A stretch of 64,000 bases of DNA, taken from assembly GCA_963790475.1 (NCBI GenBank), contig CAWBOS010000010.1, positions 640,001-704,000 of the forward strand. Reading direction: 5' to 3'. The translations under genes and the position numbers were made by a program. Source of the DNA: an uncultured delta proteobacterium. GTDB lineage: Bacteria; Desulfobacterota; RBG-13-43-22. Below are positions 1-8,825 of this stretch, piece by piece. The notes beneath the pieces were generated by a model. That model searched no databases. It was not told where the DNA came from and saw only the letters and a list, made by a program, of their open reading frames with translations. How positions within the stretch are numbered: position 1 is the first letter of the stretch; each line of letters begins with the position of its first letter.

Positions 1-111
1 AATGGCACCCGGTCCCTTTTCCATCGTTTTTCGATAAAGCCAAGACTTCTTAACCTTCAGGCCGGCGGCCATTTCCTCCACTGTTAAAAGATTCTTTGAA
101 TTGCTCTCCAT
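1..111 (-). CDS. Excisionase-like (HTH_17/AlpA-type) DNA-binding protein, N-terminal part, cut by the window edge
   Basis: Manual translation MESNSKNLLTVEEMAAGLKVKKSWLYRKTMEKGPGAI with GGAGG RBS; LLTxEExAxxLxVxxSWLY is a typical Xis-like HTH. Not in the supplied ORF track. Confidence 0.75.
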   Translation of the reverse strand, partial: MESNSKNLLTVEEMAAGLKVKKSWLYRKTMEKGPGAI

Positions 112-1483: not shown

Positions 1484-2746
1484 TCAGTGCGGCACGATCA
1501 GGTTGAAAAGTTTGTCCGCCTTTTCCGGATCGAGGCACCGCAGTTCTCGGACGACATCCAGGGCGGCTGACCGGTTTCCGGAATCGAAGTAAGTAATCCC
1601 GAGGGCATACCAGGTATAGTCAAATCCCGGCTCGATACGCAGGGCCTGGCGGTAAGCATCAATGGCATCATCATAACGATTGAGGGTGTTGTAAGTGTTC
1701 CCCAAGTTATACCAATAAATGAAGGCCATTTTCGAATCGTTTCGGGTGGCCTGGCGATAAGCCTTGATAGCATCATCGTAACGCTTAAGTGTGTCGTAAG
1801 CACACCCAAGGCTGTTCCAGGTATCGGCATCGTCCGGATCAATCCTGACAGCCTGGCGATAGGCTTCGATGGCATCAACGTAGCGCTTGAGACCCTCATA
1901 AGCGTTCCCGAGGCCAAACCAGGCGTTGGCATTTTCCGGATCACTTTTTGTCCACTTCCGGCACCAATCAAGCAACCCCTGCCAGTTCTTCGACTGCAGC
2001 AAGGCGGTAGCTCGTTTGAACCATTCGGTTTGGCTGCGACCCTCGGCGACCTGCTTCCGGCCCGGCTTGACCTCTCCTATCCATTCCGCGGGCATGGCGA
2101 AGTTCAGATTCTGCCCGCCTTCGATGTATAGGGTGATCAGGCCGACCAGCCGTCCTTTCCCATCGAACAGGCCCCCGCCGCTCGACCCGGTGGAGATGGC
2201 AGCGGTGGTCTGAATCAAGGGTGGTGGTCCTCCCCGGAGTTGCGCAACAATGCCGTCTGAAAGGGAAAGTTCCAGACCTTTCGGCGCTCCCACAGCATAA
2301 ACAGGGACCCCTACCTTGAGGCCCGCCGCCTTGCCAAGCTGTGCTGGTTTTCCTGTAATACCCTTGGCATCAAGGAGGCAGATATCCTTGTCGTCGTCTT
2401 CTGCATACAGGGTGGCCGGAAAAAGCTGTTTACCTCGGCCTACCTGGTAAGATGTACCCCCTTCGACGACGTGGCAGTTGGTAGCGACCCTTCCGGAGGA
2501 AATCAACACCCCGCTCCCCTGGGCTTTCAGCTTGCCCTGGGCGTCCAGGGTCTTCACCACAACAACGGCATCCTTGACCTTGTCGAAGACCTGGGCGGGC
2601 GTAAGGGCGTGGACCTGTTTTAATGGCGTAAAGGACTCCACAACCCAATCAAAGGCATCCTTCTTTTTAATGGATTCTCCAATGCAGGACGAAGAGACCA
2701 AGAAATAAGAAAAGGAAAGAACAAGAGAAAAAACCAATCTTTTCAT
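1484..2746 (-). CDS. Exported trypsin-like serine protease with C-terminal TPR repeats
   Basis: Hydrophobic N-terminus; catalytic triad motifs TNCHV, DICLL, GSSGG; several 34-aa TPR units (AWFGLGNAY...A...YRQA). Confidence 0.9.
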
Positions 2747-2898: not shown

Positions 2899-4029
2899 CT
2901 ACTCAAGAGCCTTCTTAAGATCTAACTTGATTTGTTCATATTTCAATCGAAGAAGGGCAATGAAGTTGACGCCATTGGCAATTCGCTTAAGGTCTTTTTC
3001 TGAAATTACTATAACTATGATATCTTTACTTTGGAAAAATTTGAGTAATTCACGCTCAGCATTTGTGGTTTTCCCTTTCCCGCTGATATCATTACGGGAG
3101 AAAATAATTCCGAATTTACACTTTGCCGAATCTATAACGTGGCAGAATTTGCTTATAGCAGTGACATTTGCTGGTATTGACCAATCCTTGCACTCACACA
3201 AAAAATACCGTCCTATCTCCCCCCTAAAATCTAAGGAGAGTCCTTCCAGGATGCCTACTATATCATAATCCGTCGAGCTACTTCTCAAACGCATCAGTGC
3301 TCTGCACCCAGGCATTGAGGAAATGAGATAGTGTGATAGACGTTCGAGACATTTGCCATCGCCAGATCCTAATCTTTTTATTAGCCAACGAATGTACCTC
3401 AGATTTGGAACAAATGACATGGCTTCTCGGGGAGAGGGATAGTCCGTCATCCAATCCTGATCAATTTCTTGCAGGATCCATTCGGGAAACAATGCCTCTT
3501 TAGTACATTTTTGATAGAGAATCCATATTTCCTTTGCATAGCGTGTTACCTCTTGATGTGAGAATCCATATTTCCAGACCATTCGGGGGTAAACGCCAGT
3601 AGTGGGAGCAATATGCCCCTTCCCCATAATGGCATCCTCGCAAGCGGTCAACATTAAATAGCGCTTTGCCAGAACAGGGTGATCGAGCCTTGCATGGCAG
3701 TCACTGATATAAACCAAGGGCATTCCCTTGTGAACATACGAATCCTTTGTCTTTTGGTATGCTAACATCTGATCATATAGGCCGCTAAAAATTGGAAGAG
3801 CCTCGTGAAATCGAGACTGGTTCAAAAAATAAAGACCGCAAAGCTCCCATGCTCTTTGCATCTTTGTTGGGGATGACACATCTTCAGGTTTGATAGCTTT
3901 TGGCAATTGGTTCGCAATGAGGGACGCTCCATCTTGTCTATCAAACAAAGGAAGCAATTTCGGAGGAACCACTTCTTTAACTTCTTCAAAAAAATCATAT
4001 TTCGTTATAAGGCCATTCTCTTTTGTCAT
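2899..4029 (-). CDS. Helical/TPR-like N-terminus fused to an Mrr-like PD-(D/E)xK restriction-endonuclease domain
   Basis: C-terminal LERLSHYL...DYDIVG...FLCECKDW...FGIIFS pattern; start set at ATG 4029 (MTKENG) after AAGGA. Confidence 0.7.
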   Translation of the reverse strand: MTKENGLITKYDFFEEVKEVVPPKLLPLFDRQDGASLIANQLPKAIKPEDVSSPTKMQRAWELCGLYFLNQSRFHEALPIFSGLYDQMLAYQKTKDSYVHKGMPLVYISDCHARLDHPVLAKRYLMLTACEDAIMGKGHIAPTTGVYPRMVWKYGFSHQEVTRYAKEIWILYQKCTKEALFPEWILQEIDQDWMTDYPSPREAMSFVPNLRYIRWLIKRLGSGDGKCLERLSHYLISSMPGCRALMRLRSSSTDYDIVGILEGLSLDFRGEIGRYFLCECKDWSIPANVTAISKFCHVIDSAKCKFGIIFSRNDISGKGKTTNAERELLKFFQSKDIIVIVISEKDLKRIANGVNFIALLRLKYEQIKLDLKKALE

Positions 4030-4248
4030 TCCTATTCCTTTATTAAAATGTCCAAAAAGGCGGTCCTCTCCTCTTAATCCCAATTATCTGCAACCAATTT
4101 GCTACTATTTTATCACAAAACACCGTAAAAAAACAAAAGAGAAGAAAAAAGATTTCTCCCTTTTCTCCCCCTTTTTCGTTTGTTGTTTCTTTACCTTGTT
4201 ATGCATTGCTACTATAATATTATCTAATAGTTTTAGCAACTTAATCCA

Positions 4249-4549: not shown

Positions 4550-6334
4550 TTAGCGGTTCTTGGTTTTCCTCAGGCGGATGGACAGGGGGGTTACTTCCAC
4601 CTGTTCGTCGTCATTGATATATTCCATGGCTTGTTCGAGGGTGAATCGGCGAGGAGGAACCAGGCGCAAGGCCTCATCGGCATTGGCGGCCCGGATATTG
4701 GTCAGTTTTTTTTCTTTGGTGATATTCACCCATAGGTCCTCGGGGCGGGAATTTTCACCAACGACCAATCCGGCATAGACCGGATCTCCGGGATTGACAA
4801 AAATGACGCCCCGGGGTTGAAGGTGAAAGATGGCATAAGAAACGGCTTTGCCGGGCCGGTCGGAAACCAGGACCCCGTTCGGCCGGGAGGGAATGGCCCC
4901 GGCATAAGCGGTGTGGCCGATGACCAGGGTGTTGAAAAGTCCGGTGCCCCGGGTATCGGTCAAGAATTGACTTCGAAAACCGATCAATCCCCGGGAAGGG
5001 ATTTCAAATTCAAGGCGCACCCGGCCGGAGCCATGGTTGATCATCTTGGTCATTCTACCACGACGGGCACTCAGCTTCTCGTTGACCACCCCCACGTGGA
5101 TCTCCGGAATGTCGACAACGGCCAGTTCCAGCGGTTCCATCAGCTTTCCATCGATCTGACGGGTGATGATTTTCGGTTTGGAAAGAGAAAGTTCAAAACC
5201 TTCCCGACGCATCATTTCCACAAGTACGGCCAATTGCAATTCGCCCCGGGCGCTGACCTTAAAAGAATCCCGATGTTCCGCCTCCTCTACGCTGATACTC
5301 ACGTTGTAAAGCAGTTCTTTATCCAACCGTTCTTTGATGTGACGGGAGGTTAAGAGCCGCCCTTCCTTGCCGGCCAAAGGAGAGGTATTGACCGAAAAGA
5401 CCATGGAGAGGGTTGGTTCTTCTACCGTGATGATCGGCAAGGGCCGGGGATCATCGGGATCGCCCAGGGTATCGCCGATAAAAACATCATCCACCCCGGC
5501 CACAGCGGCAATATCTCCGGCTTCGATGAGATCCCGCTCCACCCGGTTGAGGCCTTCATAGGAGTAAACCTGGCTGAGTGTGGCCTTGCCGGTCATCACG
5601 CCACTCTTGAGGAGGGCTATCTCTTGTCTTACCTTTAAATGACCGCCGACTATCTTGCCCACCGCGATTCGACCTACGTAGTCGCTATAATCCAGATTGG
5701 TTACCAGGAACTGCAAAGGGGCCTGGGGGTCACAGACCGGTGCGGGGATGGATTTTATAATGGCTTCAAAAAGAGGGGTCAGGTTTTCCCCTTGGCCGTC
5801 GGGATCGGTCAAGGCGATGCCGGCCCGGGCATTGGTATATAGGACTGGAAAATCGAGCTGGTCTTCTGTGGCCTCCAGATCGATAAAGAGATCGTAAATT
5901 TCATCCAGGACCTCCTTGATCCGGCGGTCCGGGCGATCGATCTTATTAATTACCACGATGGGGGGGAGCCTTCGTTCCAGGGCCTTGCCCAAGACAAAAC
6001 GGGTCTGGGGCAGAGGACCTTCGGTGGCATCCACCAGAAGCATGACCCCATCCACCATATTCAAAGTCCGTTCTACTTCTCCGCCGAAATCGGCGTGACC
6101 GGGGGTATCGACAATATTGATCTTGACCCCTTCATAGACAATGGCCGTATTCTTGGCCATAATGGTGATGCCTTTTTCCCGCTCCAGGTCCATACTGTCC
6201 ATGACCCGTTCGACCACCTGCTGGTTTTCCCGGAAGACACCGCTTTGCCAGAGCATGGCATCCACCAGAGTGGTCTTGCCGTGATCGACGTGGGCAATAA
6301 TGGCTAAGTTTCTCAAATCCTTACGAGTGGGCAT
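4550..6334 (-). CDS. typA: Translational GTPase TypA/BipA
   Basis: [29 protein letters not shown] and the BipA C-terminal domain. Confidence 0.97.
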
Positions 6335-6340
6335 AGCAGT

Positions 6341-6823
6341 CTACTCAACGGTCACTTTTCCCATGGTGACCTGGGAAAGGGGCCGGTCATTGGGGTCCGT
6401 TGGCCCGCAGGCGATGGCATTAACCACCTTCTGGCCTTCGGTGACCTGTCCAAAGATGGTATAGTTGGGGGGGAGGGGATAAGTTACGTGCATAATAAAG
6501 AACTGGGATCCATTAGTGTTTGGCCCGGCATTGGCCATGGCCACGGTCCCGGCCTGGTAGCCCTTTTGGTAAAGGGTTGAGACCGGATTGATCTCATCGT
6601 TAAAGCGGCCGCCCCAAGCCGATTGGCCCCCCCGTCCAGTACCGGTGGGATCTCCTCCCTGAATCATAAATCCTTTGATGGTTCGGTGGAATATGACTCC
6701 GTCGAAGTAACCTTTTTCAGCCAGGGTGATGAAATTTTCAGTGGTTTTAGGGGCCTCCGTTTCCAAAAGTTCAAAGCGGATAGTCCCTTGATTGGTTTTA
6801 ATGACGGCTTGGCGATTGGCCAT
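6341..6823 (-). CDS. Cyclophilin-type peptidyl-prolyl cis-trans isomerase
   Basis: FHRTIKGFMIQGGDP and MANAGPNTNGSQFFI motifs. Confidence 0.95.
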   Translation of the reverse strand: MANRQAVIKTNQGTIRFELLETEAPKTTENFITLAEKGYFDGVIFHRTIKGFMIQGGDPTGTGRGGQSAWGGRFNDEINPVSTLYQKGYQAGTVAMANAGPNTNGSQFFIMHVTYPLPPNYTIFGQVTEGQKVVNAIACGPTDPNDRPLSQVTMGKVTVE

Positions 6824-6850
6824 GCTTTCTCCTCCTCAATAAAATAAAAA

Positions 6851-6960
6851 TGGTGGGCAAAGTTATAATTGAGACGGCGCTCCCGATAGACAGGATTTTC
6901 CGGACGCCCCGGGACTAAGTCTCTAACCCGGTACTTGGAGCGATAATCATTTGCCCACCG
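6851..6960 (-). ncRNA. Putative structured RNA (sRNA or 5' leader) of unknown family
   Basis: Perfect 10-bp closing stem, 6-bp inner stem, inner hairpin, 5-bp loop-to-bulge pairing; begins at the predicted TSS and is followed by a U-rich tract. Confidence 0.55.
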
Positions 6961-6966
6961 TCGAAA

Positions 6967-6994
6967 ATGATAACAGTTTGAGCCAGAAAGGCAA
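6967..6994 (-). promoter_or_regulatory. Sigma70-type promoter with extended -10
   Basis: Minus strand: TTGCCT-16 nt-TATCAT with TG at the extended -10 position. Confidence 0.55.
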
Positions 6995-7180
6995 GCAAAA
7001 ATTTTATCGGAGCCTGTGCACTCGAATCAATCGATCTGTGCCCATATTTATCTTTAACGATTTTAACTTGCCTAATTAACTTGATTTAACAATATTTTCG
7101 TAATTGATTCCTGAATTCTGGCAGGAATAACTCCTATGAATCTAGGAGGATAGGCCTTGGTCAGGGAGTTATAATCCATT

Positions 7181-7207
7181 TCAGTTTTATGACTTGCGTA
7201 CCGATAA
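7181..7207 (+). promoter_or_regulatory. Sigma28 (FliA)-like promoter
   Basis: TCAG-15 nt-ACCGATAA. Confidence 0.4.
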
Positions 7208-7418
7208 AAAAGTGTTCCAGATTAACAAGATAGGATCATATTCTTTTCATTTTGACCTTAGGGCGTTTGTTAAGCTCAGGGGGATTTTACATTAATACAA
7301 TAACTCGATAAGGAACCAACAGTGGAATCGTTATCATGATGCTAATTCAAGAATCCCCTCTATCCGGGCAAATAATTACCCTGTTAAAACCGGTGGGGAA
7401 AGAAATTCCTTTTCGTAT

Positions 7419-8825
7419 GAGCCTCTTGCAAAAGTCTATTTTTAGGGAATAGACAAGCATAAAGAGTGAGCCTCAGCGGTGGTTCTGTGTTAAGATGATG
7501 TTTAGAAAGAACACAAAAAAACACAGGAGACACCGATGAAGCTCTGGAAAAAAGTATCATGGTTAAGGGGTAGATTGCAACAAGGTTTATTTTCCGATTT
7601 AGAAGAATGTTGGGAACAGCCTTTGACTGAAAAAGAGGAACGGCTGGTGACGATATTGGAACTGGTTGAGGTTGAAAGATATGTTCCCCGGAGTTCTTTA
7701 AATCAGTGGATGGGGAGGAAGATCCTTGAGCGCCAAGCGATAGCGCGGGCTTTTGTGGCCAAGACGGTCTATAACCATTCCTTCACCAGATCAACCATTG
7801 AACATTTGAAAACGACGTCTAATGTAAGACGCATCTGCGGGTTCGAAAAGGTATCCGACATTCCCTCTGAGGCCACTTTTTCCAGGGCCTTTGCGGAGTT
7901 TGCCGAAGGGGGGCTTGGCGAAAAAGTTCACGAAGCCCTGGTGGAACGTTGTTTAAAGCCGGAACTGGTTGGTCATATATCCCGAGACGCAACGGCCATA
8001 GAAGGTCGGGAAAAGCCGACTAAGAAGCCTGTAAAAGAAAAGCCTGCGCCGAAGAAGAGAGGACGTCCAGTCAAGGGAGAACTCCGTGATTCCAAGGAAG
8101 ACAAACGCTTGACCAGGCAACGAGAGCAATCAGTTGAAGAGGCCTTAAAAGAATTGCCGGTTTACTGCGACGTAGGGACCAAGAAGAACTCCAAAGGGTA
8201 CAAAGAGACCTGGGTCGGGTATAAACTCCATGCCGATGTTAATGATTGCGGATTGCCGGTGAGTGTCGTCTTGACCGCAGCATCGCTTCATGACAGCCAG
8301 GTCGCTATACCGTTAATGAAGATGACTAGTTCCAAGGTGGATTATCTTTATGATTTGATGGATGCCGCTTATGACGCTGGATCTATCTATGCAATCAGCA
8401 GAGCTCTGGGACATGTGCCCATTATCGACAAGAACTTCCGCGGTAAGGATGTGATCCCTATGGCTCCCCACGAGGCCAGAAGATTTAATGGAAGGACAGC
8501 ATCAGAACGGTTCAATAGCCGGTTAAAAGAAGAGTTCGGTGCCAAGAATGTCATGGTCCGAGGAGCCTTGAAAGTCAATCTCCATCTCATGTTTGGCGTC
8601 CTGGCGCTCTTTGCGGATCAGTTGATAAAGTTGGCTTCCTGAGTAAATTTTCAAAGAACGGGGTGAAAAGTTCAGGTCAGGAGGAGAACTATGCCTGAAA
8701 ATTGTTACCAAAGTCTCAAATCTGACTATCGTCGTTAAGAAAGACCCAAAATTTCTAAATCGACTGGGATAACCGCCTGCTGATATATTTCATCATGCAG
8801 TTTTTATAAGTTTTGCAAAAGGTTC
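7419..8825 (+). mobile_element. Insertion sequence (DDE, IS5/IS1182-like), 1407 bp
   Basis: Terminal IRs GAGCCTCTTGCAAAAGT and GAACCTTTTGCAAAACT (14/17 identical); 4-bp target duplication GTAT at 7415-7418 and 8826-8829. Confidence 0.9.
7536..8642 (+). CDS. DDE transposase
   Basis: PSEATFSR, RDATAI, GYKLH, LHDSQ, MDAAYD and ERFNSRLK motifs. Confidence 0.92.
   Translation: MKLWKKVSWLRGRLQQGLFSDLEECWEQPLTEKEERLVTILELVEVERYVPRSSLNQWMGRKILERQAIARAFVAKTVYNHSFTRSTIEHLKTTSNVRRICGFEKVSDIPSEATFSRAFAEFAEGGLGEKVHEALVERCLKPELVGHISRDATAIEGREKPTKKPVKEKPAPKKRGRPVKGELRDSKEDKRLTRQREQSVEEALKELPVYCDVGTKKNSKGYKETWVGYKLHADVNDCGLPVSVVLTAASLHDSQVAIPLMKMTSSKVDYLYDLMDAAYDAGSIYAISRALGHVPIIDKNFRGKDVIPMAPHEARRFNGRTASERFNSRLKEEFGAKNVMVRGALKVNLHLMFGVLALFADQLIKLAS

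Follow-up and report, generated by a model that had tools for sequence, protein, structure and literature searches.

The raiA motif RNA is an orphan structured RNA of Bacillota and Actinomycetota that is transcribed independently and often lies just upstream of raiA, and bacterial Y RNAs adjoin rsr (Ro) genes. Here we describe a structured RNA encoded on the minus strand of a 64,000-nucleotide (nt) stretch of DNA from an uncultured delta proteobacterium (NCBI GenBank assembly GCA_963790475.1, contig CAWBOS010000010.1, positions 640,001 to 704,000; hereafter the window), where it precedes the genes for a cyclophilin-type peptidyl-prolyl isomerase (ppi) and the translational GTPase TypA (typA). 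The raiA motif RNA is probably the nearest analogue by behaviour, since both are complex conserved RNAs near a ribosome-associated gene (raiA there, typA here). However, the two share no sequence or model similarity, and the RNA described here is about half as long, occurs in other phyla and is linked to typA in one family only. It resembles Y RNAs in size (~100-130 nt), in a long stem that joins the 5′ and 3′ ends and carries a conserved bulge, and in a patchy occurrence over many phyla, but it lacks a tRNA-like module and has no TROVE gene in its genome or among its neighbours. With the ykkC-III (guanidine-III) RNA, RF01763, one of the H-type pseudoknot riboswitch aptamers, it has in common a GUCAGGAC-like segment, a hairpin loop that pairs downstream and G+C-rich invariant segments; RF01763 gave no match at the thresholds used, and our RNA is three times larger, possesses the additional helices P1, Pa and P4, and is not cis-regulatory as a class. 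The closest system by design is the HMP-PP (thiS) riboswitch, a terminator-embedded aptamer in which a closing helix and U residues make a terminator stem around a ligand-binding-like fold (eLife 2019, PMC6478431). That riboswitch is reportedly always found upstream of thiamin genes, whereas the RNA of the window has no conserved downstream gene and encloses a ~90-nt pseudoknotted fold. The RNA is a member of none of the raiA motif, HMP-PP riboswitch and Y RNA classes.

We conclude that it probably represents a new class of free-standing structured RNA, ~110-145 nt long, which constitutes its own unit and serves at this locus as a read-through leader of ppi-typA. Throughout the class, a sigma-70-type promoter would end a few nt before the closing stem, P1, and P1 together with the U-rich tract behind it would form the RNA's own terminator. 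The product would be a stable free-standing RNA whose closing stem doubles as terminator, and which may act in trans, either by catalysis or by recognizing a single specific partner, be it a small molecule or a protein. Since ~35 near-invariant nt are common to different phyla and nearly all segments take part in helices or knots, so that no long single strand is free, a specific partner or catalysis is favoured over base-pairing with mRNA. More tentatively, and as one possibility, this double-pseudoknot class, sparsely distributed over mostly uncultured phyla, could consist of new ribozymes or of free-standing sensors of a small molecule, co-opted in one lineage to gate TypA transcription.

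The fold was analysed on an alignment (A2) of 77 homologues, 63 of which had been chosen by a pattern fixing ~21 bases. Thermodynamics alone was weak: the element has a minimum free energy of -39.5 kcal/mol, for a z-score of -2.05, and folds at least as good arose in 6/200 shuffles. RNAalifold on A2 gave four helices, P1, Pa, P2 and P4. Across the alignment 94.1% of cells were paired, 20 of 31 pairs showed double-sided changes, and 285 cells were doubly changed compared with 78 in shuffles. Pairing fell to 37-46% when partners were slid by 1-3 columns. None of 500 shuffles matched the observed value on any pairing measure, a test that is inflated by kinship among the sequences.

The closing stem P1 has 13 pairs and a conserved bulged A in the consensus, and all 13 pairs changed on both sides; its length ranges from 13 to 17 bp. 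P1 also covaried in an alignment of the window's relatives, where 7 of the 29 pairs predicted in an earlier structure had changes on both sides. The initial annotation, made from the letters of the window alone, had proposed a 10-bp closing stem (GGUGGGCAAA/UUUGCCCACC) extended by UUAU/AUAA, and a hairpin CCGGG..CCCGG inside it. The stem is indeed perfect in the window copy and is backed by the covariation of P1, and the hairpin, our P2, was confirmed, as 5/5 of its pairs covary with 98.7% of cells paired; each P2 position is canonical in 69-77 of the 77 sequences, with several pair types. P2 is enclosed by Pa, a 4-bp helix of the form NUCC:GGAN, whose outer C-A is mismatched in the window copy. 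Pa occurs as GUCC:GGAC, UUCC:GGAA and AUCC:GGAU, its outer pair being G-C in 56 sequences, U-A in 6, A-U in 4 and non-canonical in 9. Divergent members, which only the model detected, have GAUC:GAUC (L161), or GCCC:GGGC and ACC:GGU (L172, L173). In hairpin P4 the fourth pair is U-A in 43 sequences, C-G in 24, G-C in 4, A-U in 3 and U-G in 3, and the divergent member L161 rewrites P4 and alters further pairs.

One helix of the initial annotation, an inner stem CGCUCC/GGAGCG, was not upheld. GGAGCG never changes, and the strand opposite varies without compensation (CGCUCC, CGUUCC, CGGUCC, UGAUCC, CGAACC, GAGUCC). GGAGCG belongs instead to P4 (UCCUG/CGGGA) and to a proposed pairing P3′ (GGCGU:GCGCC), and from CGCUCC only UCC pairs, with GGA at 6901-6899. 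Pairing of UCCUG with an upstream CAGGA was likewise rejected, as P4 covaries with the downstream strand only.

A loop-to-tail pairing of GAGAC with GUCUC had also been suggested, and this pseudoknot, PK1, in which the P2 loop pairs with the 5-6 nt that follow GGAGCGCC, withstood the covariation check. At least four contiguous pairs between the P2 loop and the 10 nt after GGAGCGCC can be formed in 76/77 sequences, with ~50 distinct duplex sequences among the 77 homologues. Covarying duplexes include GAGAUC/GAUCUC, GAGGU/ACCUC, GAUGUC/GACAUC, CAGGUC/GACCUG, GGGGU/ACCCC and CAAGAU/AUCUUG. Mean pairing was 5.49 with each sequence's own tail versus 4.73 with swapped tails, and 0 of 2000 swaps were as good. 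To judge from these comparisons, PK1 is the best-supported tertiary pairing of the RNA. GGCGU probably pairs with GCGCC to give the second knot, P3′, which is invariant in the pattern-selected set and shows one compensatory replacement, A-U for G-C, in L161. Nineteen columns are invariant and 17 nearly invariant in the 77 sequences, and with these columns, ~21 of whose bases the search pattern itself fixed, and with covarying helices the RNA has a conserved structured core of the ligand-binding-like type expected of riboswitches. Some members carry an optional variable hairpin, which the window copy lacks. Mimicry of the sarcin-ricin loop, prompted by AGUAC in the window copy, was dropped, as the junction varies (AAGUA, AAAUA, AAAAA, AAGUU).

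RNA classes this conserved, with tertiary pairing backed by covariation, are rare, and past classes of this kind have often been recognized later as ribozymes, as riboswitches or as components of ribonucleoproteins. Searches against known families did not place this one. Rfam 15 gave no gathering-level match over the whole window. At E up to 10, positions 6700-7200 gave two chance matches, one scoring 14.7 bits where the cut-off is 45 and one scoring 17.7 bits where it is 100, and neither covers the RNA on its strand. Among 16 homologous loci searched at gathering level none matched at the RNA, the only match being a tRNA elsewhere, and homologue L081 had no match at the RNA at E up to 10. No Rfam ribozyme family matched the RNA in the window, the 16 loci or L081, and ARAGORN found no gene for transfer RNA (tRNA) or transfer-messenger RNA (tmRNA) in 6000-8000. 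The description of the RNA as unassigned in the initial annotation agrees with these searches.

Individual candidates were also rejected. The signal recognition particle (SRP) RNA of the genome was found elsewhere on the contig. A TROVE gene (PF05731) was not found in the genome of the window, in a search whose controls matched in 2/14 genomes, and the TROVE domain was absent among 91 neighbouring open reading frames (ORFs); since the genome has no TROVE/Ro gene, the RNA is not a Y RNA. The 6S model RF00013 gave no match in this genome but is insensitive, matching only 5/14 control genomes; the fold of our RNA is, moreover, not rod-like. Dispersed copies of a repetitive extragenic palindrome (REP) or miniature inverted-repeat transposable element (MITE), which the initial annotation had named as a finding that would undo its reading, were ruled out. 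Apart from the element, BLASTN against the 6.3-Mb genome returned nine fragments, none longer than 28 nt (E ≥ 0.04), the wider covariance model (R2, below) had a single match, and five other carriers had 1, 2, 1, 3 and 1 copies. Allowing ≤1 mismatch, GGTGGGCAAA occurs 9 times in the window, where shuffles lead one to expect 6.7, and so is not enriched.

There is a slim chance that the RNA belongs, as a divergent member, to a family that has been described before and went unrecognized in our searches. Rfam does not hold every published candidate, and Table 1 of Weinberg 2010 lists motifs without Rfam numbers (Desulfotalea-1, Rhodopirellula-1, Soil-1, Solibacter-1) that come from Proteobacteria, Planctomycetes, soil and Solibacter. 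Two members gave no Rfam match at the RNA even at E up to 10, however, and the checks for a Y RNA, SRP RNA, tRNA and tmRNA described above were negative. Literature searches, whose coverage did not extend to the supplementary alignments of motif surveys, produced no relevant description, and the main text of Weinberg 2017 does not mention typA, IS110 or the four phylum names looked for. Its near confinement to little-studied phyla may explain its absence from the catalogues.

To describe its distribution we used a covariance model built from 14 sequences (R1) and the wider model R2. R1 found single copies in 10/151 genomes sampled across the phylum of the window (that of the window counted), in 8 genera. 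The distant copies in this phylum have an extra variable hairpin, unrelated downstream sequence and promoter-like boxes before each copy. A pattern of four invariant blocks, scanned over 185,579 species with one genome each, gave at least 120 loci. R1 confirmed 67 of the 120 loci listed (42/80, with 43 matches, and 25/40), and the remaining 53 do not have the RNA. Titles of confirmed records name Blastocatellia, Thermoanaerobaculia, Pyrinomonadaceae, Planctomycetota, Pirellulales, Verrucomicrobiota, Opitutaceae, Chloroflexia, Desulfobacterales, Syntrophaceae, Syntrophorhabdaceae, Gemmatimonadaceae, Cloacimonadota, Calditrichia, Neomarinimicrobiota, Binatia, Glassbacteria, Spirochaetales and others. 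By record label the phyla include Acidobacteriota, Planctomycetota, Verrucomicrobiota, Chloroflexota, Thermodesulfobacteriota, Gemmatimonadota and Cloacimonadota, among others. R2 was applied to three further phylum samples, chosen around an acidobacterial, a verrucomicrobial and a chloroflexal carrier, and each time found the RNA in 2/100 other genomes; strict speed filters make these counts lower bounds. Prevalence per phylum sample thus ranged from 2/100 to 9/150 genomes. The initial annotation had held that absence of conservation would speak against its reading; the RNA is conserved in relatives and far beyond. On a Planctomycetales-labelled contig (L076) two near-identical inverted copies, at 1673-1809 (-) and 7385-7521 (+), lie 5.7 kb apart.

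Evidence for a transcription unit of its own came from the flanks of these copies. In 28/64 homologous loci a match to TTGnnn-16..18-TAnnnT has its end 0-7 nt ahead of the model match, and inspection by eye showed a TTGAC box at this distance in additional loci. Immediately behind P1, 52/77 homologues have five or more T in 8 nt, compared with 4/74 control windows placed 150 nt further on. A terminator scanner lists none at the window copy, where a ~90-nt folded domain as the 'loop' falls outside the scanner's definition.

The genes that follow the RNA show no common theme outside the family of the window. In 64 matches from other taxa the nearest downstream ORF shared the strand of the RNA in 33 cases and lay on the opposite one in 27, and 4 matches had no such ORF; for downstream ORFs of ≥90 aa within 400 nt the counts were 24 and 17. 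Nine of the opposite-strand downstream genes have Pfam domains and are therefore not noise of ORF calling. Outside the family no typA or cyclophilin link was found among the neighbours, and the 91 flanking proteins scanned were heterogeneous with no family in common. Clustering of 2023 flanking ORFs recovered only IS110 (in Chloroflexia) and the typA region of the window's family (antisense artefacts).

Some neighbours are mobile or defence genes (IS110, DDE transposase, IS66, integrase, HipA, HEPN, Cas1-Cas4 and restriction-modification), and known small ribozymes occur in such contexts. The RNA could accordingly be self-cleaving or otherwise catalytic, its knotted core and ~35 invariant nt forming an active site, and the double-pseudoknot architecture, the strong sequence conservation across phyla and the want of a conserved neighbour would suit such a role. 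We consider this improbable, as no Rfam ribozyme family matched and a dedicated promoter at P1 with a terminator-like end is more typical of a stable RNA gene.

The link to typA was examined in close relatives. BLASTN detected the element in 13/40 related genomes: 9/13 of the same genus, 2/2 and 1/1 of two other genera of the family, 0/4 of a fourth genus, and one of another family. Promoter boxes, core and U tract are conserved in the alignment of these relatives. Three genera (g1, g3 and g4) retain the arrangement RNA-(ppi)-typA, and in two genomes of another genus the RNA stands directly before typA, with no cyclophilin gene. In the congener G001, whose genome is 97% complete, the same -35 and extended -10 boxes are followed by a short U-rich spacer, the ribosome-binding site (RBS) and ppi, and the RNA is missing. 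R1 found no copy over the G001 genome, nor did an unfiltered R1 search of the locus. This arrangement represents a natural deletion or a pre-insertion state. At the G001 locus (L154) a short remnant resembling the P1 ends, then a U tract, lies ~90 nt upstream of the ppi start, and in another congener (G011; L011 1655-2024) ~370 bp are inserted between the U tract of the RNA and ppi.

At the locus of the window (Table 1) R1 matched the RNA with 134.7 bits (E 4e-32) and R2 with 95.2 bits (E 1.4e-22), over 6840-6963. The promoter and the U-rich tract before the RBS that the initial annotation had pointed out are both present, the former with a TG extension, and the letters and positions that it gave for promoter, closing stem, P2 hairpin and GAGAC/GUCUC were verified on the minus strand; a promoter scan agrees, reporting the site with 9/12 matches and TG present. 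Both boxes are kept in the alignment of the window's family, and the start of transcription is predicted a few nt before P1.

Table 1. Coordinates of the RNA, its predicted parts and the associated genes in the window.
Feature	Position	Strand	Details
Sigma-70-like promoter	6967..6994	-	-35 TTGCCT 6994-6989, 16-nt spacer, extended -10 TG-n-TATCAT 6975-6967 (hexamer 6972-6967)
RNA body	6852..6959	-	108 nt, first to last base of closing stem P1
P1, 5′ strand	6943..6959	-	GGUGGGCAAA 6959-6950, then G and UUAU; conserved bulged A
P1, 3′ strand	6852..6868	-	AUAA, C, UUUGCCCACC (6861-6852)
Pa, 5′ strand	6937..6940	-	CUCC; UCC pairs with GGA 6901-6899
Pa, 3′ strand	6898..6901	-	GGAA
P2 hairpin	6909..6931	-	CCGGG 6931-6927, 13-nt loop, CCCGG 6913-6909
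P4 hairpin	6881..6895	-	UCCUG 6895-6891, loop UCUAU, CGGGA 6885-6881
PK1, 5′ half	6919..6923	-	GAGAC in the P2 loop; partner 6875-6871
PK1, 3′ half	6871..6875	-	GUCUC, directly 3′ of GGAGCGCC
P3′, 5′ half	6904..6908	-	GGCGU; proposed second pseudoknot, inferred
P3′, 3′ half	6876..6880	-	GCGCC; proposed second pseudoknot, inferred
U-rich tract	6838..6851	-	AUUUUUAUUUUAUU, immediately 3′ of P1; terminator-like look together with P1
RBS and start codon	6821..6837	-	GAGGAGG 6837-6831; cyclophilin ATG 6823-6821
ppi (cyclophilin-type peptidyl-prolyl isomerase)	6341..6823	-	160 aa; PF00160, E 2.7e-43
typA/bipA (translational GTPase)	4550..6334	-	594 aa; PF00009, PF21018 (BipA_C), PF00679

The interval from P1 to the RBS is too small for any separate promoter. 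In the window's family, the promoter of the RNA would therefore drive ppi-typA, with the RNA as 5′ leader and probably a leaky terminator: since ppi-typA has no promoter of its own, its transcription would depend on polymerase reading through P1 and the U tract. In G001 that promoter stands immediately in front of ppi, which indicates that the operon can do without the RNA.

These findings bear on the view that the RNA is a cis-acting riboswitch or attenuator of ppi-typA, in which a ligand or protein stabilizes the fold and P1 with the U tract terminates, switching the operon. In the window's family the RNA makes up the whole 5′ leader, with the RBS a few nt after the U tract; gene order is kept in three genera, and the near-invariant core is aptamer-like. 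A place in the 5′ untranslated region of functionally related genes, as expected of riboswitches across taxa, was found inside this family only, however. Elsewhere neither typA nor ppi is linked to the RNA, downstream genes are split between the strands, and distant copies have their own promoters in unrelated contexts. Furthermore, no competing anti-terminator pairing was noticed, in an analysis that did not include a dedicated search for alternative folds, and so long a P1 with no evident alternative fold argues against a classical switch. We regard such a riboswitch as unlikely. Since the typA/cyclophilin link is confined to the family, strand bias is lacking and G001 does without the RNA, a riboswitch or attenuator dedicated to typA is unlikely to be what the RNA evolved for, and the typA-leader arrangement is a local special case. 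The proposal of the initial annotation, a small RNA or cis-attenuator of these genes, thus holds in that the RNA is structured, pseudoknotted and conserved, and 'small RNA and/or leader' fits locally; its tie to typA does not extend outside the family.

The Chloroflexia copies have a setting of their own. In four Chloroflexia-labelled species (L055, at 4776-6589; L120, L132, L082) the RNA lies tail-to-tail with an IS110-family transposase gene, and their sequences are homologous, at 72-80%, all the way from the RNA to the end of the transposase. One of these genomes, G170, has three copies of the RNA (L055, L157 and L158, on contigs C2, C7 and C12) within a ~1.8-kb repeat of 98.7% identity. 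The bridge/seek RNAs of IS110 elements are likewise structured non-coding RNAs inside the element, a situation seen here in Chloroflexia only. In contrast to those, our RNA is antisense (convergent) to the transposase, and most copies, that of the window included, have no IS110 beside them. Its variable segments are all engaged in internal pairing and hence do not resemble guides. Identity with an IS110 bridge RNA was rejected on these grounds: adjacency in four Chloroflexia loci only, antisense orientation and no guide-like segments.

More broadly, the RNA could be an accessory or target of insertion sequences, or its gene, as a stable-RNA gene, could be a hot spot of integration, with horizontal transfer accounting for its patchy spread. 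The tail-to-tail loci and the repeat of G170 fit this idea, as do the prevalence of 2-6% and the DDE transposase gene 540 nt upstream in the window. We nevertheless hold it to be very improbable. Other phyla have the RNA without IS110, in single copies, and it is antisense to the transposase where the two adjoin. BLASTN found no match to the RNA in plasmid and phage collections, and of nine pattern matches in viral contigs none was confirmed by R2. Descent seems to have been mostly vertical, as sequences group by taxon label; P4 and an upstream box, for example, take a form specific to Verrucomicrobia.

Several points weigh against a free-standing RNA class with a cellular role. In Chloroflexia the RNA is inside an IS110-bearing repeat, and prevalence of 2-6% is as compatible with an element that is dispensable or mobile as with a cellular regulator; the low, patchy prevalence together with loss in congeners indeed indicates that the RNA is dispensable. 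The strict promoter pattern is satisfied in only the 28 of 64 loci given above, and 25/77 homologues have no clear U tract. Transcript ends and termination are predicted from sequence, and P3′ draws on bases fixed by the search pattern and on a single compensatory case. No run recorded as RNA contains the stretch. It is covered only by two contigs of ~95% identity, over 6724-6949 and 6757-6929, which bridge the RNA-ppi junction; they come from two runs of one study that are labelled transcriptomic and were rated 'probably DNA', and were not counted as evidence. The RNA may also have been described already under a name never deposited in Rfam.

The free-standing class that we favour places a stable-RNA gene as the leader of a translation-factor operon and leaves an unexplained tie to IS110 in Chloroflexia. 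Congeners with and without the RNA behind the same promoter, ahead of ppi-typA, provide a natural experiment, and the alignment, the covariance models R1 and R2 and a structural model testable by probing are now available as resources.

Minor observations concern the surroundings of individual copies. Downstream of typA in the window, a 394-aa ORF (2899-4083, -) matches no Pfam family at E ≤ 0.001. The DDE transposase gene (PF01609, PF05598; 7536-8642, +) lies on the opposite strand, ~540 nt upstream of the promoter of the RNA, and the 540-nt gap between them contains no ORF of note. Finally, six Verrucomicrobia-labelled loci (L095, L049, L078, L097, L063, L146) share a GTGAAYAACT box ~10-25 nt upstream of the -35 element, possibly as an UP element or as the site of a regulator.

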